Shown here: positions 6,187 to 59,005 of the stretch, one piece after another
Layout: each line of letters starts with the position of its first letter
Numbering within the stretch: position 1 is the stretch's first letter
DNA from: an uncultured Acidobacteriota bacterium
GTDB taxonomy: Bacteria; Actinomycetota; Acidimicrobiia; Spongiisociales; ZC4RG35
Direction of reading: 5' to 3'
NCBI GenBank assembly: GCA_963837055.1
Contig: CAWILU010000006.1
Coordinates: forward strand, 192,389-256,388
DNA: 64,000 nt
The notes under the pieces: model-generated
Databases searched by the model: none
What the model was told of the DNA's origin: nothing
Seen by the model: the letters and a program-made list of their open reading frames with translations, nothing else
Translations under genes and position numbers: made by a program

Positions 6187-6187
6187 G

Positions 6188-33597: not shown

Positions 33598-34240
33598 CCC
33601 CGTCGCCGGCCCTTCGGTCTCGCTCCTCCTGGGATGGCTCCGGGGACCAGTCGCCTGGACCTGGAGTCCCCTGCCACATCTTGACGCCTTCGTAGGCGGC
33701 GACACCTGCGGGGGCCGTCGCCCGCATCCAGCCGTCGGCCGTGTCGAGCTCGTCGAGGTCGGCTAGCTCGTCGTCAGGGAACATGTGAGGGACCGACCCC
33801 CGCGAGTCCATCAGGAGAGTCTCTTTGGTGTAGATCGCGTCGTCACGGTTAGTCGTGGAGAATTCGAAGAGGCTCGTCATCGTGATTGCTTCGGTGGGGC
33901 AGGCCTCGACGCAGAGCCCACAGAAGATGCAGCGGAGCATGTTGATCTCGTAGACGTATCCGAATCTCTCCCCGGGGGAAGTCGGGTTCTCCGGGTCGTT
34001 GTCCTTCCCTCTCACGTAGATGCATTGGGCGGGGCAGGCTCCGGCGCAGAGCTGGCAACCGATGCACTTCTCCATCCCGTCTGGGTATCGGTTGAGGACA
34101 TGGCGGCCGTGGAACCGCTGGGGCTTGACCCTCATCTCGTGCGGGTATTCGGTGGTGACCAGCTCGTCTCCGGCGATGGTTCGGACCATCGTCCCCCCGG
34201 TGACGCGGAGACCCTTGATCAGCTCCTTGATGAGACCCAT
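33584..34240 (-). CDS. nuoI: NADH-quinone oxidoreductase subunit I (operon 2), with acidic C-terminal extension
   Basis: CIGCQLCAGACP and CIFCGLCVEACP. Start ATG 34240 overlaps the nuoH stop. The rest of the 559-aa track ORF is an out-of-frame reading of nuoH. Confidence 0.9.
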   Translation of the reverse strand: MGLIKELIKGLRVTGGTMVRTIAGDELVTTEYPHEMRVKPQRFHGRHVLNRYPDGMEKCIGCQLCAGACPAQCIYVRGKDNDPENPTSPGERFGYVYEINMLRCIFCGLCVEACPTEAITMTSLFEFSTTNRDDAIYTKETLLMDSRGSVPHMFPDDELADLDELDTADGWMRATAPAGVAAYEGVKMWQGTPGPGDWSPEPSQEERDRRAGDGDADD

Positions 34241-37781: not shown

Positions 37782-37799
37782 TCGCGATTTCCAATCACC

Positions 37800-37819
37800 T
37801 CTGGGGGGCGACCCCCAGA
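37800..37819 (-). other. 8-bp GC hairpin in the 121-nt nuoF-nuoG spacer
   Basis: tctggggg-gcga-cccccaga. Confidence 0.4.
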
Positions 37820-37902
37820 CCCCCGCTCGCCTTGCAGGCAGCCTGCCAAATCATCTCGGCGATCTCTTGCACAGGTCACCTCGACAGATATTCGCGTCGG
37901 GC

Positions 37903-39219
37903 TCACTGAGAGAGCACCTCGACTGGTTTCAGAGGGCAGCCACCCATCTCCACATGGGCATTGACCTCGTCCCGGAAGTAGTCACGCAGGGCAAGGACCG
38001 GTGACACCGCCGAGGGGCCGAGCGGGCAGATGGTGGTCATCTTGGGGGGCCAGCCGAGACCGACGCTGATGTTGTCCGAGACGTCGAGCAAAAGGTCGAG
38101 GTCGACCGCCCTGCCCTGGCCTTCCTCGATCCGGCGCAGGATCATCTCCATCCAGGTGGTTCCCTCCCGGCAGGGCGTGCACTGGCCACAGGACTCGTGG
38201 GCGAAGAAACGCACGATCCGCTCGGCCGCGCGCACCATGCAGGTGGTGTCGTCCATGACGATGACCGCCCCTGACCCGAGCATCGAGCCTGCCTCGGCGC
38301 ATATGTCCTTCGTGATCTGGTCGTCGAGGTGGATCTGGGGGACGAACCAAGGCGATGACGCTCCGCCGGGGATGAGAGCCTTGAGCGCCCGGTCGTTGGG
38401 GATGCCCCCTGCGATGTCATAGACGAGATGACGCCAGGTGATCCCATGGGGAAGCTCGTAGTTGCCCGGTTTGTTGACATGGCCTGAGACCGAGAGCATG
38501 AACGTCCCGGTGTCCAGAGGGTGGCCGATCTCTTGGTACTTCTCCGCCCCCATCGCCAGGATGTGAGGCAGGTTCGACACCGTCTCCACGTTGTTGACGA
38601 TGGTGGGCTGCATGTAGAGCCCCTTGGCGGCGGGAAAGTAGGGAGGCTTGAGCCGGGGCTCGCCGCGGAGACCCTCGAGACTGTTGATGAGGGCTGTCTC
38701 CTCACCGCAGATGTAGGCCCCCGCCCCCAGGTGAACCGTCAGCTCGAGGTCGTATTCGGATCCGAGGATCCCCTTGCCCAGATAGCCCTTGGCGTACGCC
38801 TCGTCGACGGCGGTCTGGACCCGTCGCGCCGGCTTGGGGTACTCGCCTCGTATATAGATGAAAGCCTCATGGACCTCGTTGGCGATCGCGGTGATGAGGA
38901 TCCCTTCGATCATCTGGTGGGGGTCCCGCTCGAGCAACTGACGGTCCTTGAATGTGCCGGGCTCGGACTCGTCGCCGTTGATGACGAGGTAGGCAGGTCG
39001 GGCCGGGGCAAGGAAGCTCCACTTGAGACCGGCGGAGAAAGCCGCCCCGCCGCGGCCGAGAAGACCCGAGGTCTTGATCTCTTCGACCAGCTCGTCACGG
39101 GTCATGGTGGTGGCCCGCCGTGCCTGCTCATAGCCACCGGTCGACTCGTACCGGTCGATGGTGTGCGAGTCGCCGGGGAACTCGGTCATCCGCTTGGTGA
39201 CAACGAGTGGTGTCGTCAA
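37903..39219 (-). CDS. nuoF: NADH-quinone oxidoreductase subunit F (operon 2)
   Basis: GRGGAAFSAGLKWSF (FMN site), GDESEPGTFKDR, ESCGQCTPCREG (N3 cluster). Start is TTG 39219 (TTGA with the nuoE stop) or ATG 39189. Confidence 0.9.
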   Translation of the reverse strand: MTTPLVVTKRMTEFPGDSHTIDRYESTGGYEQARRATTMTRDELVEEIKTSGLLGRGGAAFSAGLKWSFLAPARPAYLVINGDESEPGTFKDRQLLERDPHQMIEGILITAIANEVHEAFIYIRGEYPKPARRVQTAVDEAYAKGYLGKGILGSEYDLELTVHLGAGAYICGEETALINSLEGLRGEPRLKPPYFPAAKGLYMQPTIVNNVETVSNLPHILAMGAEKYQEIGHPLDTGTFMLSVSGHVNKPGNYELPHGITWRHLVYDIAGGIPNDRALKALIPGGASSPWFVPQIHLDDQITKDICAEAGSMLGSGAVIVMDDTTCMVRAAERIVRFFAHESCGQCTPCREGTTWMEMILRRIEEGQGRAVDLDLLLDVSDNISVGLGWPPKMTTICPLGPSAVSPVLALRDYFRDEVNAHVEMGGCPLKPVEVLSQ

Positions 39220-39839
39220 GTGTTGCCCTCGCTGCCAACCGTTCCCAGCGGCTGGAACGCCGGATAGGGCCCGATCGCCCCGTCTTCCTCTCTGATCGCC
39301 CAATCGAAGCTTCGCACCCCACCGAACAGCTCTTGCATCTCGTCGGTGTTGACGATCGCTGGCTGAGCGCTCCCCAACCATCTCACCAGATCACGGGCCT
39401 TTTCCGGGGTGACCCCTTCGATCAGCTCGTAGTTGACCTGGACCGCCGGGGCCCCGCCGCAGGCGCCGATGCACTCGACGTGCTCCACGGAGAGAAGTCC
39501 ATCTTCGCCGGTCTCGCCGTGGGGGACCCCCGATTCGTCTTCCACCGCGTGAAGCACGTCGTCGCCGCCCAGGAGCATGCAAGAGATCGAGGTGCAGCAC
39601 GAGATGAGGTATCGCCCGGTCGGGCGCCGTTTGTACATCGTGTAGAAGGAGGCGACCGCCTGGACCTGGGCCGGGGTGATCCCCACCCAGCGGGCCACTT
39701 CTTCCATGCCCTCGTTGGTGAGATGACCTTCTTCAGCCATCGCCAGATAGAGCAATGGCATCACGGCCGACCGCTTCTGGGGATACCTGGAGATGATCTC
39801 CCGGGCCCGCTCCTGGGTGGCCTCCGACCAGTGGCTCAT
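39216..39839 (-). CDS. nuoE: NADH-quinone oxidoreductase subunit E (operon 2)
   Basis: 2Fe-2S cysteines in CCTSISCMLLG and ECIGACGGAP. Confidence 0.9.
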   Translation of the reverse strand: MSHWSEATQERAREIISRYPQKRSAVMPLLYLAMAEEGHLTNEGMEEVARWVGITPAQVQAVASFYTMYKRRPTGRYLISCCTSISCMLLGGDDVLHAVEDESGVPHGETGEDGLLSVEHVECIGACGGAPAVQVNYELIEGVTPEKARDLVRWLGSAQPAIVNTDEMQELFGGVRSFDWAIREEDGAIGPYPAFQPLGTVGSEGNT

Positions 39840-39888
39840 CGACGGCGCAGAATAGGTAGCACCGTTATCAGGGGCGAAACCCGGCTGT

Positions 39889-41229
39889 CTACCGGTCGAC
39901 GTCGCCCATCACCGGGTCGAGGGACGCGATCGTGGCGACGGTGTCGGCCATCAGGGAGTCGGCCATGGCGATGGGAAGGGCCTGGAGGTTGGCGAAGGAC
40001 GGGGCCCGGGTGTGCATCCGGTAGGGACAGGCCCCGCCATCGGAAACCAGATAACACCCAAGCTCGCCCCGGGGTGACTCGACCGCCACGTAGGTCTCCC
40101 CGGCCGGGACCTTGTAACCCTCGGTGAACAACTTGAAGTGATGGATCAGCGCCTCCATCGATTCGTCGATCCGGGCCCGGGGCGGCGGGGTCACCTTGCG
40201 ATCGTCGACCCGATAATCGCCTTTGGGCATGGTGTCCATGACCTGCTCGACGATCCCCAGGGACTGCTTGATCTCCTCGACCCTGATCCGGTAACGGTCA
40301 TAGACATCGCCGTGCTCACCGAGCGGGACCTCGAACTCGTACTGCTCGATGCCGCTATAGGGGAATGCCTTGCGGATGTCCCAGTCGACACCGGTCGAGC
40401 GCAGCGGCGGCCCGGTGATCCCGTAGGCGATGGCCTCCTCCGCCGTCAGCACCCCGACGTCCTTCGTGCGGGCCAACCAGATCGGGTTGTTCTCGAGGAG
40501 GTCATCGTATTGACCCAGCCGCCTGGGGAGCTCCTCGATGATGGCGGCAACGTCGTCCTTCCAACCCGGTGGCAGATCGGCGGCCACCCCTCCCGGTCGG
40601 ATGAAGTTGTGGTTCATCCGCAGCCCGGTCGTCTTCTCGAAGAAGGCGAGGATCTGCTCCCGCTCTCGGAAGCCGTACATCATCATGGAGATGGCCCCGA
40701 TATCCATCCCGTTGGTGGCCAGCGCGACGAGATGCGACGAGCATCGGTTGAGCTCAGTGAGGAGCACCCGGATTGCAGCGGCCCTCGGTGGGACCTCGAT
40801 CCCGAGCAGCCGCTCCACCGCCAGCGCGTAGGCCAGCTCGTTGTGAAGCGGGGCCAGGTAGTCCATGCGGGTCACATTGGTCCCGCCCTGGGAGAAGTTG
40901 AGCTGCTCCCCGGTCTTCTCCATCCCGGTATGGAGATATCCGATGATCGGCTTGGTCCGCCGGATGATCTCCCCCTCCAGCTCGATCTGGAGCCTGAGCA
41001 CACCATGTGTGGACGGATGCTGGGGGCCCATGTTGAGGATCATCCGCTCGTCCTCTTCGGCCTCGTCGTCGAAGACGTAGTCGTCGTCGATCACCCGCCC
41101 GAACTCTTCGGCGAGACGGCCCTCCGGTTCGTCGAGGGTCATCTCCTGGGCGCCCTCGTCGGTCGGCGTCAATTCCGGCTCCTCGGTGCCGGCCACCCAG
41201 ACGTCGAGATTCTTGGCGTCGTCGCTCAT
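39889..41229 (-). CDS. nuoD: NADH-quinone oxidoreductase subunit D (operon 2), acidic N-terminal extension
   Basis: LNMGPQHPSTHGVLRL, and it ends in SLDPVMGDVDR. Confidence 0.9.
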   Translation of the reverse strand: MSDDAKNLDVWVAGTEEPELTPTDEGAQEMTLDEPEGRLAEEFGRVIDDDYVFDDEAEEDERMILNMGPQHPSTHGVLRLQIELEGEIIRRTKPIIGYLHTGMEKTGEQLNFSQGGTNVTRMDYLAPLHNELAYALAVERLLGIEVPPRAAAIRVLLTELNRCSSHLVALATNGMDIGAISMMMYGFREREQILAFFEKTTGLRMNHNFIRPGGVAADLPPGWKDDVAAIIEELPRRLGQYDDLLENNPIWLARTKDVGVLTAEEAIAYGITGPPLRSTGVDWDIRKAFPYSGIEQYEFEVPLGEHGDVYDRYRIRVEEIKQSLGIVEQVMDTMPKGDYRVDDRKVTPPPRARIDESMEALIHHFKLFTEGYKVPAGETYVAVESPRGELGCYLVSDGGACPYRMHTRAPSFANLQALPIAMADSLMADTVATIASLDPVMGDVDR

Positions 41230-41230
41230 C

Positions 41231-41770
41231 TCAACTCGCCTTGTGGCTTTCCTTGAACTGGACCGGCACCGCGCCGACGCCGAAGTCCTTGCGCAACGGA
41301 TGGCCCTCCCATTCGTCGGGCATGAGGATGCGGGTCAGATCGGGGTGCCCTTCGAAGACGATCCCGAACATGTCATACGCCTCGCGCTCGGCGAAGTTGG
41401 CTCCGGGCCAGACCGGCACGAGTGAGGCGACAGTCGGCTCGAGGCGAGGGGCCGTGGTGCTCATGCGAAGCCGAAGGCGATGCTGCATCGACAAGAGGTT
41501 GGCAACGACCTCGAATCGGTCGGGCCGCGCGCGCATCCAGTCGACGGCGGTGACATCGACACACACTTCGAACCCGGCCTCTTTCGCCGCGGTGGCGAAC
41601 TCGAGCCAGCCCTCGTTTGGCACCCGAGCCACGTCCTGACCCAACGACGACTCCCACGTGACGTCCTCGAATCTCTCGAACAGAGTCTTGAGGACTTCGT
41701 TCTCGGGAAGGATCCGCGCCGGGACCTCGATGGCCTCCTCGATCTCGATCGGTTGAGAATCGTCGGTCAA
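41231..41770 (-). CDS. nuoC: NADH-quinone oxidoreductase subunit C (operon 2)
   Basis: [28 protein letters not shown]. Start TTG 41770 forms TTGA with the nuoB stop. Confidence 0.85.
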
Positions 41771-42234
41771 CTGGCGATCTCGCCCTTCATGATCTTGTCG
41801 TGCAGGGTGAGGATCCCGTGCATCAGGCTCTGCGGCCCCGGTGGGCAACCCGGCACGTAGATATCGACCGGTACCACCTGATCGACGCCCTGGACCAGGG
41901 CGTAGTTGTTGAACATGCCCCCGGTGGAGGCGCAGGCCCCCATCGAGATCACCCATTTCGGGTCGGGCATCTGGTCGTACACCTGTCGGAGCACCGGGGC
42001 CATCTTCTGGCTGACCCGCCCGGCCACCACCATGAGATCAGACTGCCGGGGTGAGGCGCGGAACACCTCCATCCCGAACCGGCTCAGGTCGTAGTGGGCC
42101 GTCCCGGTGGCCATCATCTCGATGGCGCAACAGGCGAGGCCGAACGAGGCGGGAAACATCGACCGGGTGCGGGCCCAGCGAGCGGCCTTGTCGATCGTGG
42201 TCATGAGCAGATTGCCCGGAGCGGTGGTGGCCAT
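41767..42234 (-). CDS. nuoB: NADH-quinone oxidoreductase subunit B (operon 2)
   Basis: [29 protein letters not shown] 42234 overlaps the nuoA stop. Confidence 0.9.
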
Positions 42235-42644
42235 CAGGCAGCCTCGTCGCTGGCGTCGGCGGGGATGTAACGGGCCCGACGATGGACGTTCCAGTCGAGA
42301 GCGCCCCGCTTCCACACATAGGCGAGGGTCTCGGCCACGAAGAAGGTGAAGATGAAGATCGCCGCCACCCCGTACCAACCCAGACGGTCGTAGATCGAGG
42401 CCCAGGCGAAGAGGAAGATGATCTCGACGTCGAAGATGACGAACAGCATCGCCACCAGATAGAACTTGACCGGGAAGCGCTGCACCGGCTCGGTCTCGGG
42501 GACGATCCCGCTCTCGTAGGGGTCGAGCTTGGCCGCGGTGGGATTATCGGGCCGGACCAGACGGGAGGCGATCAGGGACACGGCCACGAAGACTGTCGCC
42601 AGGATGAGCATGATCCCGATCGGCAGATAGTCGGCCAGAGTCAC
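42234..42644 (-). CDS. nuoA: NADH-quinone oxidoreductase subunit A (operon 2)
   Basis: [25 protein letters not shown] start at 42644 (uncertain). Confidence 0.85.
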
Positions 42645-48692: not shown

Positions 48693-48764
48693 CGTGCCGA
48701 GAGGTTAGATACCGGGGCCTGGTAGCCGGGATTCTGATAATCCGAAGCGGGTTTAACGTGAGCT

Positions 48765-48780
48765 TGTGAATGAAATCCCA
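48765..48780. promoter_or_regulatory. Rex-operator-like site overlapping the rex start codon
   Basis: TGTGAATGAAATCCCA versus the Streptomyces ROP consensus TGTGAAnnnnTTCACA: 10 of 12 defined positions match. Confidence 0.3.
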
Positions 48781-49383
48781 AAGGCCACGGTGGTCCGTCT
48801 CCCCCGCTATCTCAGATTGTTGGAGGACCTCGACTCATCCCGCGACGTCGTCAGCTCGGAAGAGCTAGCCACCGCAGCCGGGGCAAACGCCGCCAACGTG
48901 CGCAGGGATCTCTCCCACCTCGACTTTCACGGTGTGCGCGGGATCGGCTACTCGGTCGGTGAGCTCAAGGCGCGCATCCGCCAGGAGCTGGGGATCGCCG
49001 AACGCCGGAAGGTCGCCATCGTCGGGGCCGGGAACCTGGGCCGAGCCCTGGCCAACTACGGGGGGCTGAGCCGACGCGGGTTCGATGTGATCGCGCTCTA
49101 CGACACCGATGTGAAGAAGATCGGCTCGACTGTGGGGAGCGTGACCATCCAGGATCTCGAGGTCCTCGACGGTGATTGCCAGTCGAAGAACTTCGAGATC
49201 GCCATCCTCGCCGTGCCCGCCGTGGCGGCACAACAGGTGGCCGATCGTCTGGTGGGGCACGGGATCCGCTCCATCCTCAATTTCGCCCCGGTCCGGGTGA
49301 ATGTTCCCGAGACGGTCTCGGTCCGTCAGGTGGATCTGTCGATGGAGCTACAGGTGCTGAGTTATTACGGGAGCCGGCTGTAG
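48766..49383 (+). CDS. rex: Redox-sensing transcriptional repressor Rex
   Basis: IPKATVVRLPRYLRLL, and the Rossmann motif VAIVGAGNLGRALANY. Confidence 0.9.
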   Translation: MNEIPKATVVRLPRYLRLLEDLDSSRDVVSSEELATAAGANAANVRRDLSHLDFHGVRGIGYSVGELKARIRQELGIAERRKVAIVGAGNLGRALANYGGLSRRGFDVIALYDTDVKKIGSTVGSVTIQDLEVLDGDCQSKNFEIAILAVPAVAAQQVADRLVGHGIRSILNFAPVRVNVPETVSVRQVDLSMELQVLSYYGSRL

Positions 49384-49387: not shown

Positions 49388-49771
49388 CTAGGCCCTGGCC
49401 TTCTCCTGCACTTCCTCGTACTGGTGCAGCGCCACCAGAAAGGCGAGAAAGAGCACCAGCGACACCAACAGATAGGTGATCGGGATGATCCGGATCTCGA
49501 ACGCGTTGAGGCCTTCGATGTCGGCCGGCTTGGGGCCACGCGGTGCATAGACCACGAACAACATCGAGGTGATCGTCAGCCAGCCGAACACCGCCGCCCC
49601 CGTCACCAGGAACCCGAGCCGTTTGCCCAGGTTGGTGTAATTGAACAGGTAGATCGAGCCGTAGAACAACGCAATCGCGGCCAGGGTGAGGATGATCCCG
49701 GTCACGAAGAGATTGGCCGAGAACAACGACCGGAAGAGCTCACGGAAGAACAACGGTGGCCTCCTTCCCAT
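49388..49771 (-). CDS. Small 4-TM membrane protein, last gene of the Rieske/cyt b operon
   Basis: 127 aa with four hydrophobic helices. It overlaps the cytochrome c gene end by 32 nt. No family recognised. Confidence 0.55.
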   Translation of the reverse strand: MGRRPPLFFRELFRSLFSANLFVTGIILTLAAIALFYGSIYLFNYTNLGKRLGFLVTGAAVFGWLTITSMLFVVYAPRGPKPADIEGLNAFEIRIIPITYLLVSLVLFLAFLVALHQYEEVQEKARA

Positions 49772-51662
49772 CCATGTTCCCGCCCCTCAGATAGCGGGCG
49801 AGCAACTCGATGTCATCCAGGCTCAGACTGGCGCCAAAAGCGGGCATTCGTCCCGAGCCGAAGCCATTGATCCCATACGGTGTCTCTGGTTGTGAACCTC
49901 TGATCAGGAACTGGATCAAGAGATCCTCTTCCGGGCTCTCCGTCGCTTCACCGAACTGGACGGTCGGCCGGCCGTCCCACAGCGCGGGGCCGAAACCGCC
50001 CGAGCCTGCCTCCTGCGTGTAGGGCACACCGGCGCTGTACCCGGCGGTGTGACACCGGGCGCAATTGGAGTTGAACAGACCTACCGCACGCTCCGCCTCG
50101 TCGGGCGACGAGCCCATGGCCTCTGCCACGCCGGCGAAATCGATCGAGTACAGCTGGGCTTCCAACGACTCCTCCAGATACCGGAGGCCTCCCTCTTCCT
50201 GCTCCAGGAGGGCATCCTGATTCTCCGACGTGATCGTGATCGTCGTCGACAGCGATTCCAGATTGCCGACCAGGGCGATGGCGGTGGCAGCATCGGGCTC
50301 GCCGCCGACTGAAGCCGGATTGGTCGGATCGAGAGTGACGAGTGTGATTTGGCTCGGGGTGGTCGCGGTGATGGCGGCGTCGACCTGGCTGGTGATGGCG
50401 GCCTCCGCTCCGGTGGACAACCCGTCGCCGTCGGGGTCCGAGCCTTCCTCGATGGCCGCGGTCGCAGCCGCGGCGAGGTCCGCCGCCCCCTCCACCGGCT
50501 CCTCGGCACCCGCCGCCTCGGTCAGCGCCGCCACCAGCTCGTCGGCGGCCCCGACGTCTTCAATCGCGCCCGGGACTTCGATCCCTGCCTCCTCGGCCGC
50601 AGCCCTGGTCTCCTCCAGAGTGGTCAATGCAGCGGTGCTCAGACCAACGGCTGGGTCGACCGCGCCGTCCTCCATCGCCGTCTCGATCGCCGCCACGTTG
50701 CCCAGGACAATCGGGTCTGTTTCAGACGCGTCTTGCAACGAGGCCAAGGCCTCATCAGCCAGCTCGGCGTCGGCTACCTCGGGATCGAGGGCGATCGGCT
50801 CCATGATCTGGAACCCGGCCACAGCCTCTGCAGAGATGTCGCTCAACTCGGTCTCGGCTGCGTCCGACACCCCATCGGCGTCGGTGTCGATCCCGGTCCC
50901 CGCCCCGGCCAGGACCTCACGAGCCCGGGTTGCGAGGGGCACCACGAGGTCGGCGTCCTCTGAAGCAGACTCGATGTTGGCTACCACCTGTCTCTGCTCG
51001 AGGATGGCCGCCTCGACAGCGGCGTCGGCGGTTTCGAGACGATCCAAAGCAGTGTCGATGCCCGGCTGGATATCCCCCAGGTTCTCATCCTGCGTCACCT
51101 GGATGGTCGCCAGATAGTTGACCACGTCCTCGACCTGCTGCTCGTTGAGTGGCCCACCGCCCGGGACGCCCCAGGCCGGCATCGGGGTGTTGCCCCGGCC
51201 GTACGTGACCCAGAAATTGACCTCGTCCTCCTGATATCGGAAGAAGACGTCGTTGAGAGAGGGCACCGCCCAATCCACCGTGACGCCGGACCGTTTCTCC
51301 ACGTATGGGGCAACTCCGCCCGATCCTTCCGGGCCGTGACAGTTGAAACAGCCGAACTCCTCGACCAGGTGCGCGCCACGCTCCACCGATCCCACGGCGA
51401 ACTCTTCGACGAATCCTGCCTGGCGATCCGGTTCGGTGAGGAAATAGAGAGGCAAGGAAATGGCGAGAAAGGCCGAGAAGGCGATAGCGGCTTTTTGCCC
51501 GCCCTCCAGACGTCGGGTCTCGATTTGCTCGTCGTCGATGCCTGGGCGGAGGTTGGGAGCGACTTCCTCACTGCCGCGGTTGCGGATCGCCGACACGAAA
51601 AGAAATCCGAGCCATGCGATCCCTGCGACCAGGGCGATGACCGTGATGATGTTGGCTGTCAT
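49740..51662 (-). CDS. Membrane-anchored dihaem cytochrome c with a ~340-aa acidic low-complexity insert
   Basis: N-terminal TM segment. CFNCH...TPMPAW and CARCH...GRMPAF haem-c motifs lie about 435 aa apart. ATG 51662 forms ATGA with the Rieske stop. Confidence 0.8.
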   Translation of the reverse strand: MTANIITVIALVAGIAWLGFLFVSAIRNRGSEEVAPNLRPGIDDEQIETRRLEGGQKAAIAFSAFLAISLPLYFLTEPDRQAGFVEEFAVGSVERGAHLVEEFGCFNCHGPEGSGGVAPYVEKRSGVTVDWAVPSLNDVFFRYQEDEVNFWVTYGRGNTPMPAWGVPGGGPLNEQQVEDVVNYLATIQVTQDENLGDIQPGIDTALDRLETADAAVEAAILEQRQVVANIESASEDADLVVPLATRAREVLAGAGTGIDTDADGVSDAAETELSDISAEAVAGFQIMEPIALDPEVADAELADEALASLQDASETDPIVLGNVAAIETAMEDGAVDPAVGLSTAALTTLEETRAAAEEAGIEVPGAIEDVGAADELVAALTEAAGAEEPVEGAADLAAAATAAIEEGSDPDGDGLSTGAEAAITSQVDAAITATTPSQITLVTLDPTNPASVGGEPDAATAIALVGNLESLSTTITITSENQDALLEQEEGGLRYLEESLEAQLYSIDFAGVAEAMGSSPDEAERAVGLFNSNCARCHTAGYSAGVPYTQEAGSGGFGPALWDGRPTVQFGEATESPEEDLLIQFLIRGSQPETPYGINGFGSGRMPAFGASLSLDDIELLARYLRGGNMDGKEATVVLP

Positions 51663-52552
51663 GCCCCGGCGGCCGGTGCCACGGCGCTGATGCAACTAGG
51701 ACCCTGCGGATAGGCGACGCTCAGCTCGGGCGCTCGAGGTGTCTCGATCCTGGTACCGGTCTTGATGATGAGGATCCCACCCTGGTTCTCGACGACGAAC
51801 CGGTCGAGGTTCCGCGGAGCCGGGCCTCCGAAATACTGGCCGATGGCGTTGTACCTCGACCCATGACAGGGGCACTCGAAACCCTGCGACGGCGCGCACC
51901 AAGGAACCCGGCATCCGAGATGGACACATCGCATGTAAAGCGCCATCAGACCGTCGGTTTCGACGCTCTTGCCTTCGAATTGGGCTGACGGCTCCTCTGG
52001 GGCGGGAACGATATAGGCCCGTGCCTCGGGTATGAACAGCGGTAGCACGGCTCCGCCCGGGGTGAACACCTGGGTGCGGAGATCCGAGATGGGGCCGGCC
52101 GTGATGTCGGCCCCGAAGCCGCCGGTGAGTTTGGGCCAGAAAAACACGAGGTAGTAGAGGCCCTGGCCGGCGAGAAAAGTGCCGAAGGTGGCGACGATGG
52201 CGCGGTTGAAGAACTGGCGCCTGTTGACGCCACCTTCTTCGGGAGATACCTCCACGATGCGCTGGGTCTCGAGGATGTCGACGACTGCATCGGCTTCCTC
52301 CACCTGCTCCTCGGTTTGCTCCGCCTCGGGCTCCGCCGGCTCGTCGACGTCCGGCTCCTCCTCGACCAGAGGAGGGACGACGACCGCGGTAGCGGCCGAT
52401 CGATCCGCGGCCAAGGTTTCCGCCGAGACACCGGCCAAGGGATCGGGTTTCTCGGCAGTCTGCGATCGGCGGTAGGCGACGGCGAACGCACCGGCCGCCC
52501 CGAGGATCGCCACGACGGCGACCGCAATGAGGGCGGCGTTGGTCCAGGTCAT
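51659..52552 (-). CDS. Rieske [2Fe-2S] subunit of a quinol-cytochrome c reductase-type complex
   Basis: CVHLGCRV and CPCHGSRY boxes, an internal RRQFF Tat-like motif, and an N-terminal TM segment plus acidic linker. Confidence 0.85.
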   Translation of the reverse strand: MTWTNAALIAVAVVAILGAAGAFAVAYRRSQTAEKPDPLAGVSAETLAADRSAATAVVVPPLVEEEPDVDEPAEPEAEQTEEQVEEADAVVDILETQRIVEVSPEEGGVNRRQFFNRAIVATFGTFLAGQGLYYLVFFWPKLTGGFGADITAGPISDLRTQVFTPGGAVLPLFIPEARAYIVPAPEEPSAQFEGKSVETDGLMALYMRCVHLGCRVPWCAPSQGFECPCHGSRYNAIGQYFGGPAPRNLDRFVVENQGGILIIKTGTRIETPRAPELSVAYPQGPSCISAVAPAAGA

Positions 52553-53652
52553 TCGAATTGCACCCAGTCCTTCAGGTCATCGAAATAGACCCCGTCCTTC
52601 CACGGGTAGGAGAAGTTGAAGCCAAGACCGCGGAATAGGACCCCGAAAATGGTCAACGTCGCGGCGCCGGCCAGGAACACCGAGTAGAGGGCGATGGCGA
52701 ACTTGCGGTCACTCGGCCGGGTAGACGGGTTCTTGTCGACGTAGGGCACCATCATGAAACCGATGATCCCCGTGATCGTGGGCACCGTGACGCCGGCGAT
52801 CTGGGGGTCGAAGTAGGACAGCAGCTCCTGGAGGCCGAGGAAGTACCACGGCGCCTTCGACGGGTTCGGGGTGGCGTTGAAATTGGCCGGGTCGAGCAGC
52901 GGGGAGTGGATGATCACCGACATGATCACCACCAGACCAGTGATGGCCAGCAGCGCACCGAATTCCATCAACATCAGATGGGGCCAGGTGTTGACCTTGT
53001 CGGTTGGCTCCGCCTTGACCGTCTGGATCGCCCTCGCCTTGACCACGGTGAGCAGACGCTGGGTGCGCACCCCTTCGGGCGTCCCCTTCGGGGGCACGGT
53101 GGGACGGGCGCTGACCACGGCCGCCACTTTTCCCGCGCCGTTTCCGGAGCCACTCCCTGCGCCGTTGCCCGCGCCGTCGCCCGCGCCGTCACCGGCTTCC
53201 GGGGCGGGACGGTCCTCGACCGCGGTAGCGACCGATGCGGCGACGGGCTCGACCTCGGTGTCGGGCTGGGCCTCGGTGTCAGGCTGGGCCTCGGTGTCAG
53301 GCTGGGCCTCGGGAGCCTCATCAGTCTCGGCTTCGGTAGGCGGCGCCGGTGGCACCTCTGCCTCGGCCGCGGCCTCGACCTCCGGCGTCTCCGTCGCCGC
53401 CGCCTCGGCAGGGACCTCCTCGGCCGGGGCAGGCTCCTCTTCGACCGCTTCCACTGCCTCTTCGATCTCCTCGGAACGCTCGGCCGAAGCCTCCATTTCC
53501 TTGGCCGGCTCCGGCTCGGGCTCGGCCGAAGGGGGTGGTGTCGGCGGCGCCTCGCCCTTCATCTCGGCCAGGACCTGTTCGACGGGGAGCCCCAATGCTT
53601 TGGCCTTGGCCTCTGCCGACCTTCTGAGGAGACTCTCTGGTATCTCGGTCAT
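52549..53652 (-). CDS. Cytochrome b C-terminal part / b6f subunit-IV-like protein with long N-terminal extension
   Basis: The C-terminal ~170 aa carries PNPSKAPWYFLGLQELL (PEWY-type motif) and 3 TM segments. The N-terminal ~190 aa holds a conserved module plus PDTEAQ and GAGDGAG repeats. Confidence 0.75.
   Translation of the reverse strand: MTEIPESLLRRSAEAKAKALGLPVEQVLAEMKGEAPPTPPPSAEPEPEPAKEMEASAERSEEIEEAVEAVEEEPAPAEEVPAEAAATETPEVEAAAEAEVPPAPPTEAETDEAPEAQPDTEAQPDTEAQPDTEVEPVAASVATAVEDRPAPEAGDGAGDGAGNGAGSGSGNGAGKVAAVVSARPTVPPKGTPEGVRTQRLLTVVKARAIQTVKAEPTDKVNTWPHLMLMEFGALLAITGLVVIMSVIIHSPLLDPANFNATPNPSKAPWYFLGLQELLSYFDPQIAGVTVPTITGIIGFMMVPYVDKNPSTRPSDRKFAIALYSVFLAGAATLTIFGVLFRGLGFNFSYPWKDGVYFDDLKDWVQFE
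53253..53312. repeat. 18-bp tandem repeat (3.3 copies) inside the subunit-IV-like gene
   Basis: cctcggtgtc[g/a]ggctggg repeated head to tail, encoding (PDTEAQ)n on the minus strand. A 12-bp GC-rich repeat lies nearby at about 53150..53195. Confidence 0.8.
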
Positions 53653-53661
53653 GACGACTCC

Positions 53662-54438
53662 TTAAAGCGGCCCTGAGATGCCGCCGTCCTTGCGCACTCG
53701 CCAGAAATGGACGGCGAGGAAAATCACGAGGACGAACGGAAACGCGAGCACATGCAGCACATAGAAGCGAAGCAGGGTGGAGGCCGACACCTCCACGCCG
53801 GCAAGCAAGGCGAATTTGACCTGATTTCCCACCACGGGGACGAAGCCGGCCATGTTGGTCCCAACCGTCACCGCCCACAGCGCCAGCTGGTCCCAGGGAA
53901 GGAGATAGCCGGAGAAAGAGAGGAGCAGGGTGAGGAAGAGGAGTACGACACCCACCACCCAGTTGAACTCACGAGGGGGTTTGTAGGCGCCGTGATAGAA
54001 GACCCGGCTCATGTGGAGGAAGACGGAGAGGACCATCAGATGGGCGCCCCAGCGGTGCATGTTCCGGACCAGGGAGCCGAAGGCGACGTTGGTGGAGAGG
54101 GCCTCGATATCGGCATAGGCGGTCTCGGCCGACGGCGTGTAATAGAACATCAGGAAGATGCCGGTGATGGTCAGGAGGATGAAGAGGAAGAAGCTGAGAC
54201 CGCCGAGACAGAGTGTGTAGGACAGCTTGACCCCGTGCCGCTTCACCTTCACCGGGTGGAGGTGATAGAGCACGTTGTTCATCACGACGTACGACCGGTT
54301 CCTCGGGCTGTCCGAGTATCCCTTTTTGAACGGCGAGCCAGGGCGGAGGATCGACTCGGCGACCTGGGAGCCCCAGACCTTGTCGTTCACCTCTTTGATT
54401 CTCGCCCCGATGCCGGGCTTACCGTTGCCGTTGGCCAC
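53662..54438 (-). CDS. Cytochrome b6-type (N-terminal four-helix) cytochrome b
   Basis: [46 protein letters not shown], and the second His pair in [23 protein letters not shown]. Start GTG 54438 follows AGGAGG. Confidence 0.85.
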
Positions 54439-54446
54439 GTCGCCTC

Positions 54447-54896
54447 CTACCAGCGCATCCCGTAGGCATAACCATTCTTGAAGTCCCTCTGCCCGGTGTC
54501 GAAATCCCAGGGCCGGCGGTCGAGACCGAGCTCCACGGCCTGCTCGGCGAGCGACCCCTCGAATTTGCCCAAGGTGATGACGTTGGTCGGGCAGCGATCG
54601 ACGCACAGAGCGCACCGGGTGCACTCGTCTTCGTCGACCACGAAAAAGCCGAGATTCTGCGGATCCTCACCGGGGTGGTCGACATTGACTCCCTCGGTGA
54701 TCGCATCGAGCGACAGGTAGTGGATGCACTTCCAGGGGCAGATGTCGACGCAGCCCTCGCAAATGATGCATTCGGCCTGATCGATGTGGAGGAACTGCTT
54801 GGGGCGGAGCTTGTCGGTGAAATAGTCGCCCTCGACCACTGCCAACTGATAGTCGTCGCGATATGGAGGCGTCTCGTCGACGACACCCTTGGGCAT
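54447..54896 (-). CDS. 2x[4Fe-4S] ferredoxin-type protein
   Basis: [12 protein letters not shown] and [15 protein letters not shown] 54896 overlaps the upstream stop by 1 nt. Confidence 0.8.
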
Positions 54897-55502
54897 CAGC
54901 CTTCGCCTCTGACGAGCGGCCGCCCATAAGGCGAGCGTGGCGGTTCCTTGTCGGCGGACACAGGTGGGCCCTTCTTGATCTTCTGGAGCTGAAGGACGAA
55001 CACGGCGGCCGCTCCGAGCATGACCAGGTGATAACCCATCGAGATCGAGTCTTTGATCGCGGCGTAGCTGAGCTGGACGTCGTTGCCCAGGACGAGCACC
55101 GGCGGGATGGTCAGGGCAACGCGTTGCGACGACCAGTCGAGATCGGTTTGTGCGAAGTTGAGCCATTCCGAGGGGACCATGCCGAAGATGATGACCAGCT
55201 CGATCCAAGAGATGAAGGCGGCGAACAGGGCGCGGGCCCAGGTCAACCGCTGATTGAGAACCCAGAGGAACAAGGCGCCGACAACCAGCATCTGGGATGC
55301 GCCGAAGACGACCAGATACCCGAGTCCCTTCCAAATCGCGCCGCGTGGGGATCCAATCGAAGATGCCTCCATCCTCCCCGGGCGCCAGGCTGGAATAGTG
55401 GATCCAGATCACCCCGACGACGAGAGCGACGAAGCCGAGACCGAGCAGTCCCCACCCGATGCTCTTGCGTCTGCTGTCGCTGAGTTCTGCCAGCCGGTAC
55501 AT
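54896..55502 (-). pseudogene. Membrane protein, first gene of the Rieske/cyt b operon, apparent frameshift
   Basis: Frame A reads MYRLAELSDSRRKSIGWGLLGLGFVALVVGVIWIHYSSLAPGEDGGIFDWIP, then turns Arg-rich. Frame B (ORF 54896..55372) continues RGAIWKGLGYLVVFG... with 3-4 TM segments. Junction near 55337-55352. Alternatively an intact 158-aa gene starts at ATG 55372. Confidence 0.5.
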
Positions 55503-55603: not shown

Positions 55604-57124
55604 GTGGCTGCGGTGGGAATCGATGAAGTAGTTATGCTCCCGCCGTCCCGTTCCGCGACGAGGGAACCCTTGGCCGCAACCCAAACTGCAGACATCAGGG
55701 CCCTGCTCGGGGCCGGTGACGAAGACCGCGTCGCCGTAGCCCATTTCCTCGTCGGCGCCTTGTTCCTCGTCGTGGCCGGTGTCTTCGAGCTTCTCTCTCT
55801 CTTCGCCCTGAGATTCGGCGGGCTCGCCCCGATCAGCTACGGCCGGGCCGAGTCGCTGGCCAACGTCACCGTCATGCTCGGGTTCCTCGTCCTCACTTTG
55901 GCCGGCGGCATCTACTACGTCCTCCCCAGACTGACCGGGGCTCGGCTGTGGAGGAAAGAGCTGGCCTATCTCGGTCTGCTCGGGGTGTCCGGTCTGGTGG
56001 TCCTCGACCTTCTCGCCATCGTCTTCGGCTTTGGCGAAGGCCGCCAGCCGTTCGGCGTTCCCTGGTGGCTCCATCTCCCGATGCTGGCCGTTCTCCTCAT
56101 CCCCCTGGCTGTCACCGTGATGACTATCCGGCGGCGCGAGGAACAACGGAGCTTCGTCACGCTCTGGTTCGTAATGGGTGGAGTCGTCTGGCTCCCATTG
56201 CTCTACCTCGTCTACACCGTTGGACAGCTCCCGTTCTTCTCCGCTCTCGGCGAGGAATACTCAGATCTCTTCTTCTCCGCCGGGTTCGTCACCCTCTGGG
56301 TGTTCACGGTGGGCAGCGGGCTCTTCTATTACACCCTCGTCAAGGAGCTGGACATCCCGCTCGCCTCCCGCCAGCTGGCCTCGGTTGGCTTCTGGTCGTT
56401 GGGATTCGCAGCAGCATGGTGGGGCTCAGCCCAGCTCGTGTTCGGCCCTGGGCCGGGCTGGATCGACGGAGTGTCAGCCGCGTTGGGCCTCGCCTTTCCG
56501 ATTGGGGCACTGGCCAACGCATCGAATGCCTCGGTCACCCTCCAGGGCCACTGGGAGGAGCTGGGCGACAAGCCGGGGGTGGTGTCGGGGGTCTTGGGTC
56601 TCTACCTGGGAGTGGCAGTGGCAATCCTCGCCAGCTTCGCCTCCTTCCCGTCCGTGGGATCGGTGACCGCGCTCACGGCTTATTGGGAGGCGATCGAATA
56701 TGCCGCTCTCTACGGGGTGGGAGTGCTCCTTGCCGCCGGGATCGTGTTCGAGGCCCTGCCCCGTGTCGCCGGTCGTGAGCTGGCCTCTCTGGACCGCCCC
56801 CGGTCGTTCAATCGCTGGACTGTGATCGGCGTCGGCGGCGTCGCGGTCAGCCTTGTGGCATCCGGGCTGGTCAGCGGCTACTCGTGGGTGGCCGGGTCCA
56901 ATAGCGCGGCCTATGTCGACGTTGGTGAAGGTTGGGCTGCGGGAGCCGGGACGGCCGAGGTCCTGCTGCTCGTTGCATTCGGGTTCGGCATCATCGCCTT
57001 CCTCGGCCAGCTGGCTTACGCCGCCACAGTCCTCGGGACCGTCACCATCGGGAAGGCGGTCCCCCAGGAGGTGCTGGTCTACGGGTTGGAGCCGCCGGGC
57101 GGCGAGGAAGTCGCTGATGAGTGA
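55604..57124 (+). CDS. cbb3-type oxidase subunit I (CcoN)-like 12-TM protein lacking the canonical His ligands
   Basis: Blocks resemble CcoN (ISYGRAESLANVTVMLGF, GGIYYVLPRLTGARLW, TLWFVMGGVVW, ALANASNASVTLQGHWEEL). Only 3 His in 506 aa, none at expected ligand positions. Start uncertain (GTG 55604 or ATG 55634). Confidence 0.6.
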   Translation: MAAVGIDEVVMLPPSRSATREPLAATQTADIRALLGAGDEDRVAVAHFLVGALFLVVAGVFELLSLFALRFGGLAPISYGRAESLANVTVMLGFLVLTLAGGIYYVLPRLTGARLWRKELAYLGLLGVSGLVVLDLLAIVFGFGEGRQPFGVPWWLHLPMLAVLLIPLAVTVMTIRRREEQRSFVTLWFVMGGVVWLPLLYLVYTVGQLPFFSALGEEYSDLFFSAGFVTLWVFTVGSGLFYYTLVKELDIPLASRQLASVGFWSLGFAAAWWGSAQLVFGPGPGWIDGVSAALGLAFPIGALANASNASVTLQGHWEELGDKPGVVSGVLGLYLGVAVAILASFASFPSVGSVTALTAYWEAIEYAALYGVGVLLAAGIVFEALPRVAGRELASLDRPRSFNRWTVIGVGGVAVSLVASGLVSGYSWVAGSNSAAYVDVGEGWAAGAGTAEVLLLVAFGFGIIAFLGQLAYAATVLGTVTIGKAVPQEVLVYGLEPPGGEEVADE

Positions 57125-57941
57125 GCTGAGCGCCGCCGCTGCCGAGGCCTTGGGCATCCCCGAGGCGATCGTCTCGCGGTCGGCTGCCGCCCGCGCTGAG
57201 GAAACCGGGATGACCGTTGACGAGGTTCTCGCCGCATGGGCCGGTGGCGGGGACATCCCGGCTCCTGTTTCCTCCCCCGGGAGCGAAGCGACTTTGGGTG
57301 AGGTGGATCGGCCGGAGGCCGAGACGGAGGGGGCTCCGGAACCCGTAAGAGACGACACTCCCCCCTCCCCGCCTCCGGCGGTACTCCCCCCTGCGGGGAG
57401 AGAAATGCCGCCGCCGGCCGTTCCCGGAAAGCCACCGGTCCTGATCGGAGAGACCGACAACCCGATCGCGGTGCTGGTGGGCGCGGTCGGTCTGTTCGTC
57501 GCTCTCTTCCTGGTCGGCGTTGTCGGCCCTTCCCTACCCACAGAGAACCCGGGGGCACGCACCAGTGAGCTGCCCTACAGCGCTGCGGGCCTCCATGGGC
57601 AGGACATCTACCAGTCTGTGGGCTGCGCTTCGTGCCATACCCAGATGGTCCGTCCCGTGATAGCGGACGTCGGCCTCGGTGCGGTCTCTCTCAATGACAG
57701 CAACCAGGTGCTCGGCTCACGCCGCTTCGGGCCGGATCTCTCCGATATCGGTGGACGTACCTCTGCCAGCCAGATCGAAGCAGTGATAACCGGTTTCGAT
57801 GGTCATCCGTCGCTGTCGCTGTCTACGGAGGATCTCGACGCGCTGGTCACCTATCTGGTCGAGTCGGCGACTCTCGAGGAGGCTCCGGCAGAAGAGCCCG
57901 TCGAGGAAGAGGCGGCTGAGGAAGAGGCAGCGGCTCCATGA
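57117..57941 (+). CDS. CcoO-like monohaem cytochrome c subunit with N-terminal conserved module
   Basis: GQDIYQSVGCASCHTQMVRP and GSRRFGPDLSDIGGR match CcoO. N-terminal module MSELSAAAAEALGIPEAIVSRSAAARAEETGMTVDEVLAAWAGGG, then a Pro-rich linker and a TM segment. It overlaps the upstream gene by 8 nt. Confidence 0.7.
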   Translation: MSELSAAAAEALGIPEAIVSRSAAARAEETGMTVDEVLAAWAGGGDIPAPVSSPGSEATLGEVDRPEAETEGAPEPVRDDTPPSPPPAVLPPAGREMPPPAVPGKPPVLIGETDNPIAVLVGAVGLFVALFLVGVVGPSLPTENPGARTSELPYSAAGLHGQDIYQSVGCASCHTQMVRPVIADVGLGAVSLNDSNQVLGSRRFGPDLSDIGGRTSASQIEAVITGFDGHPSLSLSTEDLDALVTYLVESATLEEAPAEEPVEEEAAEEEAAAP

Positions 57942-59005
57942 GCGATCTGAGCGCTGCCGCGGCCGCTCTCGGCGTCCCTGAGGCCATCGTGCAACGGTCG
58001 GCTGCGGCGCGCGCCACCGAGACCGGGATGACCGTCGACGAGGTGCTGGCCGCCTGGGCCGGTGGCGGATCGGTAGCAGGAGCTCCCGCTCCGTCTGCGG
58101 AGGACGCGCCACCCGCTGAGGTCGAAGAGGCAGTCGAGGAAAAGGCCGCCCCCTCCCCGCCTCCGGCGGTCGTTCCCCCTTCGGGTGGAGAGACGCCGGT
58201 CGAGCCGGCTGCGGCCCCCGCAGGTCCGGTGACTCGTTCGCCTGTCCCGGCCGAAGTCACCGCTGCCGAGGCAGCAGGTTTGCCCGAGGTGGTCACGGTG
58301 CCTACTGCAGGGATCAGGGAGCGCCCCAACTTCGCCATCCCTCGGTGGCTGGCCGCGGTGATGCTGATCATTCCCGCTTTCGCTCTGTTCGCCCTGGGCG
58401 GGTCCGCCACCGGCGAATGCGGCGAGTCGACCGAGCTCGACACCGACGTGATCACCGGTGAGGTGGTGAATTGCGACGGGACCGAGTTCACCGGATCCGG
58501 CACCGGGGGCGGTGGCGCCGACTTCATCGCCATGGGCGAGGACGTCTACATGAACGTCGCCAACTGCGACGGCTGTCATGGCGCCCAGGGAGAGGGTGGG
58601 GTGGGACCAGGTTTCGCCGGGGTGGTCAACACCTTCGGCTCCTGCGCCGATCACATCGAGTGGGTCACCCTCGGCTCGGCCGGTTTCCAGGCCGACGGGC
58701 GGGGAACCTACGGGGACACAGGCAAGGCGATAAACGGAGGCATGCCCGCATTTGGGGATAGTTTGAGTCCCGAGCAACTCGCCTCGGCAGTCGCCTACGA
58801 GCGGGTCCGTTTCGGTGGCGCCGACCCGGCCGAGGTCCTGACCGACTGTGGTCTCGCACCGGCGGAGGGTGAGGAAGGCGAAGAGGGCGGTGCCCCCGGT
58901 GAGACGACTCCGGGCTCGACCACCCCCGGTGAAGAGGCCCCGGCAGACGGCGAGACAACGACCACCGTGAGCGGCGCCGAGGCTGCGATCGCCCGCGTGC
59001 CCTGA
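57938..59005 (+). CDS. Membrane-anchored class-I cytochrome c (CcoP-like role) with the same N-terminal module
   Basis: CDGCHG ... GGMPAF. The N-terminal MSDLSAAAAALGVPEAIVQRSAAARATETGMTVDEVLAAWAGGG is paralogous to that of the preceding gene. ATGA overlap. Confidence 0.7.
   Translation: MSDLSAAAAALGVPEAIVQRSAAARATETGMTVDEVLAAWAGGGSVAGAPAPSAEDAPPAEVEEAVEEKAAPSPPPAVVPPSGGETPVEPAAAPAGPVTRSPVPAEVTAAEAAGLPEVVTVPTAGIRERPNFAIPRWLAAVMLIIPAFALFALGGSATGECGESTELDTDVITGEVVNCDGTEFTGSGTGGGGADFIAMGEDVYMNVANCDGCHGAQGEGGVGPGFAGVVNTFGSCADHIEWVTLGSAGFQADGRGTYGDTGKAINGGMPAFGDSLSPEQLASAVAYERVRFGGADPAEVLTDCGLAPAEGEEGEEGGAPGETTPGSTTPGEEAPADGETTTTVSGAEAAIARVP

Follow-up and report, generated by a model that had tools for sequence, protein, structure and literature searches.

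Why should a ferredoxin be encoded within an operon for a Rieske/cytochrome b complex? The question is raised by a locus in a 64,000-nucleotide (nt) stretch of DNA, referred to below as the window (contig CAWILU010000006.1 of assembly GCA_963837055.1, positions 192,389 to 256,388), which has a G+C content of ~64-67% and whose closest relatives are Acidimicrobiia. Seven close-packed genes on its minus strand, spanning 49388-55502, specify in order a membrane protein, a 2x[4Fe-4S] ferredoxin, a cytochrome b6-type protein, a subunit IV homologue, a Rieske protein, a di-haem cytochrome c and a small membrane protein; this is the order given in the initial annotation, and every gene is present where it had been placed. 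To judge from their sequences, the seven genes are best explained as encoding complex III of this Acidimicrobiia bacterium, its main quinol:cytochrome c oxidoreductase, and the ferredoxin is probably, though with ample room for doubt, either a bound subunit of the complex or a dedicated redox partner at its cytoplasmic (n) side. The known part of this system is a type of complex III recognisable at clade level; what is new is a candidate iron-sulfur subunit, conserved and hitherto undescribed, together with two uncharacterised membrane proteins.

The case for a functional tie is made chiefly by the constancy with which the ferredoxin gene accompanies that of the b6-type protein. Two sets of loci were examined. 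One consists of 80 species-representative genomes retrieved via cytochrome b6 (72-95% b6 identity), which are metagenome-assembled genomes (MAGs) or isolates of Acidimicrobiia type with a few bearing other labels, and which include Actinomarina, Ilumatobacteraceae (one labelled acIV) and Microthrix; neighbouring genes in these loci were located by tblastn. In 79 of these 80 species-level genomes the gene immediately preceding b6, on the same strand, is that of the ferredoxin, and the full order, membrane protein-ferredoxin-b6-subunit IV-Rieske-cytochrome c-small protein, is kept wherever contigs reach far enough. Recurrence at this frequency puts the arrangement far beyond chance. The sole exception, an Ilumatobacteraceae MAG (L037), has a lone b6 gene at 6001-6768 (74% identical) in whose surroundings no ferredoxin, subunit IV or Rieske gene was seen, the neighbours being unrelated; it is either an orphan paralogue or a misassembly.

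The other set, 80 metagenome loci, came from a scan with a profile of the distant ferredoxin members described below, ratios being expressed per locus with room for the gene in question. Ferredoxin is followed immediately by b6 in 70/70, then by subunit IV (40/40) and Rieske (37/37). The upstream membrane protein gene precedes ferredoxin in 68 of the 80 genome loci and in 63 of 71 metagenome loci. Five contigs reached via distant ferredoxins (31-44% identical), two of them from NCBI assemblies, likewise all keep the module order: small membrane protein-ferredoxin-b6-subunit IV-Rieske-(cytochrome c)-extra membrane protein. These distant modules adjoin haem-c maturation genes, a haem-copper oxidase and often a gene for a Rex-type repressor. 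Overall, the ferredoxin gene is immediately upstream of this cytochrome b6 in 75/75 ferredoxin-centred loci. Ferredoxin-b6 synteny among relatives was the trial which the initial annotation had proposed for its own idea, and the pairing came through it in both the genome-centred and the ferredoxin-centred counts.

The ferredoxin has the attributes of a specialised protein. Its cluster motifs begin at residues 43 and 92, it matches Pfam Fer4, Fer4_21 and Fer4_7, and outside the fold it carries conserved extensions of ~40 amino acids (aa) at the N-terminus and ~37 aa at the C-terminus. It is acidic (net charge -14), and its sequence contains no signal peptide, twin-arginine motif or hydrophobic transmembrane (TM) helix; together these features mark it as cytoplasmic. 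Both cluster motifs, with all eight cysteines, are kept in the ferredoxins of 83 of 84 relatives. The remaining one, in L026 (~5519-5990), has a second cluster motif without its second cysteine (CTRGQLCIDRCP), which could reflect a [3Fe-4S] variant or a sequencing error.

An exhaustive HMMER search over 1.84 billion representative proteins with the ferredoxin as query returned only 639 matches at E<=1e-3 and 128 at E<=1e-10, numbers which indicate a small, specific family rather than the generic superfamily. The most distant recognisable members, at 31-44% identity to the window protein, share with it an N-terminal 'DYxLxxVDxxWL...KPK' segment as well as both cluster motifs. All named members are from Actinomycetota, the distant ones carrying such names as 'Actinomycetota/Actinobacteria bacterium'. 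In source databases the protein is annotated variously as 'ferredoxin', '4Fe-4S binding protein', NuoI, PreA or hydrogenlyase subunit 6; the NuoI and PreA names are misleading. We found no description of the family, or of its association with cytochrome b6, in the searchable literature, though an earlier mention may exist outside it.

Selection on the ferredoxin has been stringent. When window genes were compared with those of five close relatives, the dN/dS ratio of ferredoxin was 0.015-0.06, the lowest or joint lowest of the operon in 5/5 comparisons, as against 0.05-0.17 for b6, 0.10-0.24 for subunit IV (with one outlier of 0.87, from a partial alignment with L007) and about 0.09-0.27 for the Rieske protein, for cytochrome c and for both membrane proteins. 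The ratios should be taken as rough values, given that dS approaches saturation. Median identity points the same way, at 52% for ferredoxin versus 41% and 40% for Rieske and cytochrome c respectively. In an AlphaFold2 model residues 10-112 fold as a two-cluster core and residues 113-149 form a disordered tail; a tail that is conserved and yet modelled as disordered on its own is as expected of a docking segment. A Foldseek search of the PDB with this model returned generic 2x[4Fe-4S] domains (best E 5e-3, none <1e-3), the top matches being FwdF and NdhI-type domains.

The gene junctions, read directly from the sequence, bear out the tight linkage by overlaps and short gaps that the initial annotation had described. 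The membrane protein and ferredoxin genes overlap by 1 nt; ferredoxin and b6 are separated by 8 nt, such that the b6 ribosome-binding site overlaps the ferredoxin stop codon; and the other junctions comprise a 9-nt gap, two ATGA overlaps and one 32-nt overlap. The latter shrinks to 14 nt if TTG 49753, an alternative start preceded by GGAGG, is the start of the small 4-TM gene. Such spacing suggests that ferredoxin is translationally coupled with its neighbours, a point in favour of its belonging to the complex. An open reading frame (ORF) of 320 aa can be drawn for b6 that overlaps the ferredoxin gene, but the b6 start is most likely GTG at 54438, behind GGAGG and not inside the ferredoxin gene, and the longer ORF was set aside. 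A scan for promoters and terminators over 48.6-56 kb gave counts equal to or under the shuffle expectation.

What kind of cytochrome b does the ferredoxin accompany? The b6-type protein has its four haem-ligand histidines in b6 spacing (RNMH...FLH 14 residues apart, VLH...AVH 15), the solved structures that it matches best are those of b6 from chloroplasts and cyanobacteria (1e-46), and subunit IV is encoded separately, so that the split, b6-like core which had been claimed for this locus is indeed there. A CxGG motif in helix A, TLCLGG, is kept in 85/85 relatives, the reading here being T[LF]CLGG (motif counts here refer to 85 genome-derived loci: the 80 of the genome scan and the five contigs reached via distant ferredoxins). 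The cysteine of this motif is predicted to provide the single thioether link to haem ci (cn) on the n side. Ahead of the membrane domain b6 has an N-terminal extension of ~50 aa, basic (net charge +9), that by homology with the cytochrome b6f complex would face the cytoplasm. Subunit IV begins with a conserved cytoplasmic motif, followed by an acidic low-complexity linker of ~140 aa and three TM helices, and carries the Qo motif APWY ('SKAPWYF'), present in 79/79 complete relatives. Its acidic Ala/Glu/Pro-rich insert, at 52990-53520, contains a threefold 'EAQPDT' repeat.

Split cytochrome b, CxGG and APWY together place the core, by motif, in the 'APWY clade' of split cytochromes b defined by Kao & Hunte 2014 (PMC4122944). 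This clade was reported to span delta-Proteobacteria, Chloroflexi, Nitrospirales, Planctomycetes, Symbiobacterium and a few deep-branching Actinobacteria, with Ilumatobacter (Acidimicrobidae) and Rubrobacteridae on the list; it had no characterised member as of 2014, and operation in reverse was suggested for it (PMC4122944). The listing of Ilumatobacter, together with a b6 score above the cut-off of the NCBIfam model for Geobacter ExtP, gives indirect evidence that the window's cytochrome b belongs in the clade. The view that the locus is atypical for Actinobacteria is thus correct, and not new, since split APWY/CxGG cytochromes b in Acidimicrobidae and Rubrobacteridae were published at that time. 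Its non-canonical standing is equally plain from profile scores: the NCBIfam models for actinobacterial QcrB, QcrA and QcrC (NF050120, NF050121 and NF050122) give 114, 20 and 17 bits, far under their cut-offs of 500, 275 and 200.

The Rieske protein has the boxes CVHLGC and CPCHGSRY, the latter conserved as CPCHGS.Y in 71/72 relatives with the box; its N-terminal TM helix is joined by an acidic linker to a twin-arginine-like RRQFF, after which comes a second hydrophobic helix. The Ser..Tyr pair correlates with potentials of 300-350 mV (PMC3509893), and the S..Y signature predicts that the cluster here is a high-potential one. An acidic Ala/Glu/Pro-rich insert occupies 52250-52420. The Rieske gene is found beside the cytochrome b genes in 69/80 genome loci, contig ends having limited the count. 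Cytochrome c has two TM helices, measures 640 aa from ATG 51662 or 651 aa from TTG 51695, and carries haem sites at CFNCH-105 and CARCH-534, between which lies an acidic insert of ~330 aa (the low-complexity, Ala/Glu/Pro-rich part being at 50100-51050). Two CxxCH motifs are found in the cytochrome c of 63/71 relatives, whose lengths, taken as stop-to-stop ORFs, range from the 100-199 to the 700-799 aa bin, mostly through variation of the insert.

For neither of the extra membrane proteins is there a match in Pfam or the PDB; both are most likely supernumerary subunits. The upstream family has invariant W, P and D residues and a C-terminal YGRPL motif, and its profile too finds no Pfam or PDB match. 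Compared with those of five relatives, its gene in the window is longer by a single base somewhere in 55341-55354 (the 'GGATCCCCACGCGG' region); the resulting frameshift divides it between two frames, 55502-~55345 and 55372-54896, and taking one base out yields a 201-aa ORF that is again collinear with those of the relatives. The gene may truly be inactivated, or the additional base may be an error of sequencing or assembly. The small 4-TM protein at the other end of the operon, present in 52/80 genome loci (again limited by contig ends), is a short homologue of the 245-341-aa last module gene of more distant Actinomycetota, with which (the 'extra' proteins of L081, L083, L085 and L087) it shares an N-terminal hairpin, a GPRG motif and a C-terminal helix.

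Table 1. Positions in the window of the seven operon genes and of the redox genes around them.
Feature	Position	Strand	Basis or remark
Conserved membrane protein, ~200 aa, 4 TM, first gene	54896-55502	-	frameshifted in window
2x[4Fe-4S] ferredoxin-like, 149 aa	54447-54896	-	two CxxCxxCxxxCP motifs; Pfam Fer4 families
Cytochrome b6-type, 258 aa, 4 TM	53662-54438	-	Pfam Cytochrome_B 2.6e-47
Subunit IV homologue, 367 aa, 3 TM	52549-53652	-	Pfam Cytochrom_B_C; NCBIfam ExtQ, b6f subunit IV
Rieske [2Fe-2S], 297 aa	51659-52552	-	Pfam Rieske; NCBIfam b6f iron-sulfur subunit 67 bits
Membrane-anchored di-haem cytochrome c, 640 aa	49740-51662	-	Pfam Cytochrome_CBB3, Cytochrom_C
Small 4-TM protein, 127 aa, last gene	49388-49771	-	ORF; homology to longer distant proteins
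Rex-type redox-sensing repressor	48766-49383	+	Pfam Put_DNA-bind_N + CoA_binding; convergent with operon end
ccoN-like, very divergent	55604-57124	+	Pfam COX1 7e-20; TIGR00780 85 bits vs cut-off 583
ccoO-like	57117-57941	+	Pfam FixO; NCBIfam ccoO 44 bits, far under cut-off
ccoP-like	57938-59005	+	cbb3-like oxidase genes, divergent from operon
NuoE	39219-39839	-	
NuoF	37906-39381	-	
NuoG	35346-37781	-	

Comparison with known complexes helps to define what is particular to this one. The APWY clade includes Geobacter ExtO/ExtP/ExtQ, which have in common with the window complex a split cytochrome b, an APWY Qo site and CxGG. The Geobacter genes belong to a cluster, extHIJKLMNOPQS, that encodes multihaem cytochromes, a porin and a rhodanese and is concerned with selenite and tellurite reduction; within it the order is Rieske-cytb-ExtQ, among the multihaem cytochromes, and there is no ferredoxin (PMC5877670). 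The b6 of the window scores 302.8 bits against NCBIfam ExtP (cut-off 290) and 212 bits against b6 PRK03735, whereas the ExtQ model yields 48 bits of a 150 cut-off, and Pfam and NCBIfam scans of the operon proteins found none of the other ext operon genes at this locus. Because b6 passes the ExtP model in the absence of any ext operon, automatic annotation may misname it as ExtP. The CxGG of most APWY-clade sequences that carry the motif reads WCMGG (PMC4122944); the window complex departs from the clade in having T[LF]CLGG instead, and in the additional basic ~50-aa extension at the N-terminus of b6.

The resemblance to cytochrome b6f extends to separate b6 and subunit IV, histidine spacing, the haem cn cysteine and a ...RKxGISGPL C-terminus. 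The operon has a di-haem class I cytochrome c in place of a PetA-like cytochrome f, APWY rather than PEWY, and no identified PetG/L/M/N, the host is non-photosynthetic, and the ferredoxin considered for b6f is soluble and encoded apart from the complex. Lacking cytochrome f, PEWY and the Pet small subunits, the complex is ruled out as a b6f. QcrCAB of Mycobacterium and Corynebacterium shares with it the phylum, the likely menaquinol substrate, a Rieske protein with one or more extra N-terminal TM helices, and a di-haem cytochrome c able to wire complex III directly to the oxidase; it differs in that QcrB is unsplit, ~550 aa long and without CxGG, that the gene order is qcrC-qcrA-qcrB, and that there is no ferredoxin. 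The split cytochrome b and the sub-cut-off NCBIfam scores exclude this type. With the b6c (QcrABC) complexes of Bacillus and other Firmicutes the window complex has in common a b6-type core, in its case probably menaquinol-oxidising and with a predicted haem ci, and a Gram-positive setting. The Bacillus genes run Rieske-b6-IV/c and encode a subunit IV that forms one polypeptide with a mono-haem cytochrome c (QcrC); PDWY serves as Qo motif, and a ferredoxin is lacking (PMC4122944). The window complex, with subunit IV unfused to cytochrome c, is not of this type.

For the ferredoxin part of the operon the nearest functional analogue is to be found in the anammox bacterium Kuenenia, whose Rieske/cytochrome b complexes Kustd1480-1485 and Kuste4569-4574 come with a cytoplasmic NAD(P) oxidoreductase containing a [4Fe-4S] chain (PMC12954380; PMC5600118). 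Common to both, by prediction in the window complex, are a b6-type protein with haem cn, an iron-sulfur module of the n side encoded in the operon, and a Rieske of unexpectedly high potential in combination with menaquinone. The analogy stops short of membership of the same family. The anammox module is a large FAD- and NAD(P)-binding protein with four [4Fe-4S]/[3Fe-4S] clusters, from operons with multihaem or HAO-like cytochromes, whereas here there is only a 149-aa two-cluster ferredoxin, in hosts that are Actinomycetota of aerobic heterotroph type with an oxygen reductase adjacent; and no flavin- or nucleotide-binding domain was found in any of the seven proteins by Pfam or NCBIfam.

How might the ferredoxin serve such a complex? 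Complex III here probably uses menaquinol. The Rieske protein would be exported to the outer face by way of its twin-arginine motif, and the membrane-anchored di-haem cytochrome c could hand electrons to the adjacent terminal oxidase. On the opposite face the ferredoxin (-14) may dock on a basic cytoplasmic surface made up of the b6 N-terminal extension (+9) and the juxtamembrane part of subunit IV, such that haems bn/ci would be connected to the cytoplasm by a short wire made up of its two [4Fe-4S] clusters. The complex would thereby gain a third port for electrons, comparable with PsaC in photosystem I. Electrons might use it in either direction, and both options fit the data. If they leave, a high-potential Rieske together with low-potential menaquinol would drive the potential of haem bp and of the second electron so low that the [4Fe-4S] clusters could be reduced; this would be a quinol-driven bifurcation to a low-potential acceptor of the kind proposed for the anammox complexes. 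In the latter, a high-potential Rieske operating with menaquinone has been measured, and haem bp has been argued on that ground to reach potentials down to about -475 mV, at which the n-side [4Fe-4S] chain and NAD(P)+ could be reduced (PMC12954380). It is this logic that makes an exit port plausible here; the 'additional low-potential branch' suggested in the initial annotation has the same precedent, is plausible, and agrees with the high-potential Rieske signature. If instead electrons enter, reduced donors of ferredoxin type would feed the quinone-reduction (Qn) site through haem ci; a route from ferredoxin to haem cn has long been debated for cytochrome b6f (PMC7908018). That the whole amounts to a three-port complex III, whether a quinol-based bifurcating ferredoxin reductase in aerobes or a built-in ferredoxin:menaquinone reductase, we propose only tentatively, as the less probable outcome.

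Adjacency would look the same whether the ferredoxin were a mature subunit, an assembly factor or a soluble carrier under common regulation, and each of these was considered. The ferredoxin, perhaps along with the upstream membrane protein, might be a biogenesis factor: an n-side reductant used when haem ci is joined by its thioether bond to the CxGG cysteine, or when cofactors are inserted, and co-transcribed with the complex to ensure stoichiometric supply. Haem ci does need dedicated maturation on the n side, for which the known pathway, CCB, has been described for oxygenic phototrophs; the five distant modules adjoin ResB/CcsA, Ccm, CtaA/CtaB and hem genes; and both proteins are from families without annotation. 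Yet the ferredoxin is conserved like b6, and more than Rieske or cytochrome c, which would be unusual in an assembly factor. Moreover, Geobacter ExtP passes the same NCBIfam equivalog model from an operon without ferredoxin, suggesting that haem ci matures independently, and the WCMGG form that prevails in the APWY clade likewise suggests that this maturation can do without the ferredoxin. We regard a biogenesis role as unlikely. An ordinary soluble carrier, or a redox or oxygen sensor, co-regulated with complex III (for example by Rex) and making no direct transfer to cytochrome b, would account for the generic 2x[4Fe-4S] fold, for the conservation of a Rex gene near the module and for source annotations that say only 'ferredoxin' or '4Fe-4S binding protein'. 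It would not explain why all 75 ferredoxin-centred loci have the gene next to b6, when housekeeping ferredoxins keep no fixed neighbour across such divergence; nor does it account for long conserved extensions with a tail disordered on its own, typical of docking segments, or for start and stop codons tightly coupled with those of neighbouring genes. This explanation seems to us improbable to a similar degree.

A further possibility grants the ferredoxin its place in the complex and makes its clusters work internally, as an n-side reservoir or as a bridge between monomers that aids two-electron reduction of menaquinone at Qn. The absence of a conserved flavoprotein or partner gene from the neighbourhood would be in keeping with this, as would the thought that haem ci helps concerted two-electron quinone reduction (PMC5600118) and the suggestion from AlphaFold3 models of the anammox complexes that an extra central cofactor bridges the monomers (PMC12954380). 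By our reasoning, though, two-cluster wires usually end at the protein surface, ready for a partner, and the potentials of [4Fe-4S] clusters are typically far below that of menaquinone, which would make a reservoir energetically awkward. Of the explanations considered we give this one little credence.

Several observations weigh against our preferred reading of the ferredoxin as a bound subunit or dedicated partner, and against the mechanism built on it. The APWY/CxGG-type ExtOPQ of Geobacter has no ferredoxin (PMC5877670), which implies that basic function does not need one. No natural fusion of ferredoxin with b6 or with the membrane protein was found among the exhaustive HMMER matches; candidates (P0131, P0170, P0171, P0219, P0245 and others) proved to be frameshifted or chimeric gene calls from MAGs. 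The AlphaFold2 model of the ferredoxin is of moderate quality, with a pLDDT of 63, and no conserved flavoprotein or other obvious cytoplasmic partner gene was seen near the module. The potential assigned to the Rieske cluster is derived from just two residues, and the type of quinone from taxonomic descriptions, in which Acidimicrobiia are menaquinone organisms. The role proposed for the ferredoxin is, in sum, drawn from genes and their sequences.

Redox genes also lie on both sides of the operon (Table 1). The gene convergent with its end encodes a Rex-type repressor, and a Rex homologue is also found near the module in L081, L083 and L087. The sole Rex-operator-like site, at 48764-48781 (TTGTGAATGAAATCCCAA, 2 mismatches), overlaps the rex start; since it is no better than chance (43/100 shuffles), it is only a hint of autoregulation. 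The operator search found no site in the divergent intergenic region at the other end, from which the cbb3-like oxidase genes are transcribed. An oxidase of this type adjoins the module in 30/80 genome loci as detected by tblastn. Four of the five distant contigs have an oxidase of another type beside the module, namely aa3-type COX1+COX2 in L081, L086 and L087 and COX1 with no FixO called in L083; the oxidase of L085 is a FixO-containing one. An N-terminal motif of ~35 aa, 'IPExL[LV]xRSAEA[KR]A..G..V[ED]..[LI]A', is common to subunit IV (53550-53652), the ccoO-like protein (57117-57260) and the ccoP-like protein (57938-58080). Searched as a regular expression in the 80 Acidimicrobiia loci, it occurred 36 times in subunit IV, 17 times in ccoO/P-like proteins and once elsewhere, and no Pfam family matches it; it may be a common docking or assembly module linking complex III and oxidase.

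On the left of the window lies a complex I operon, complete at 27799-42378 on the minus strand, with NuoB, C, D, E, F, G, H, J, L, M and N. The initial annotation had described an '11-subunit NuoEFG-less complex I' and considered a link between it and the ferredoxin; with NuoE, NuoF and NuoG all in the window, that proposal falls. An ORF downstream of the complex I operon, 26640-27932, has a bactofilin domain, and the leftmost region, at 7-20 kb, holds sugar and ABC-transport genes.

Oceans, lakes, soils and wastewater plants all harbour Acidimicrobiia and their relatives in large numbers; to our knowledge the complex III of these bacteria has never been studied. For now, pipelines may call this b6 ExtP, after a protein of selenite and tellurite reduction, a misleading name. 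The finding is worth pursuing at the bench, since some hosts are in culture and since it touches on what haem ci does. If the three-port proposal is true, the ferredoxin to haem cn route of b6f would have a natural, genetically fixed counterpart, conserved throughout the Acidimicrobiia and in more distant lineages with Actinomycetota names. Should the ferredoxin prove to be bound, the haem ci site of these Rieske/cytochrome b complexes would have an iron-sulfur port to the cytoplasm, and they would offer a tractable, non-photosynthetic model for asking whether haem cn exchanges electrons with ferredoxin. The idea of a bifurcating Rieske/cytochrome b complex, so far confined to anammox bacteria, would then extend to common aerobes, and the modelling of energy yield and redox balance in these bacteria would change.

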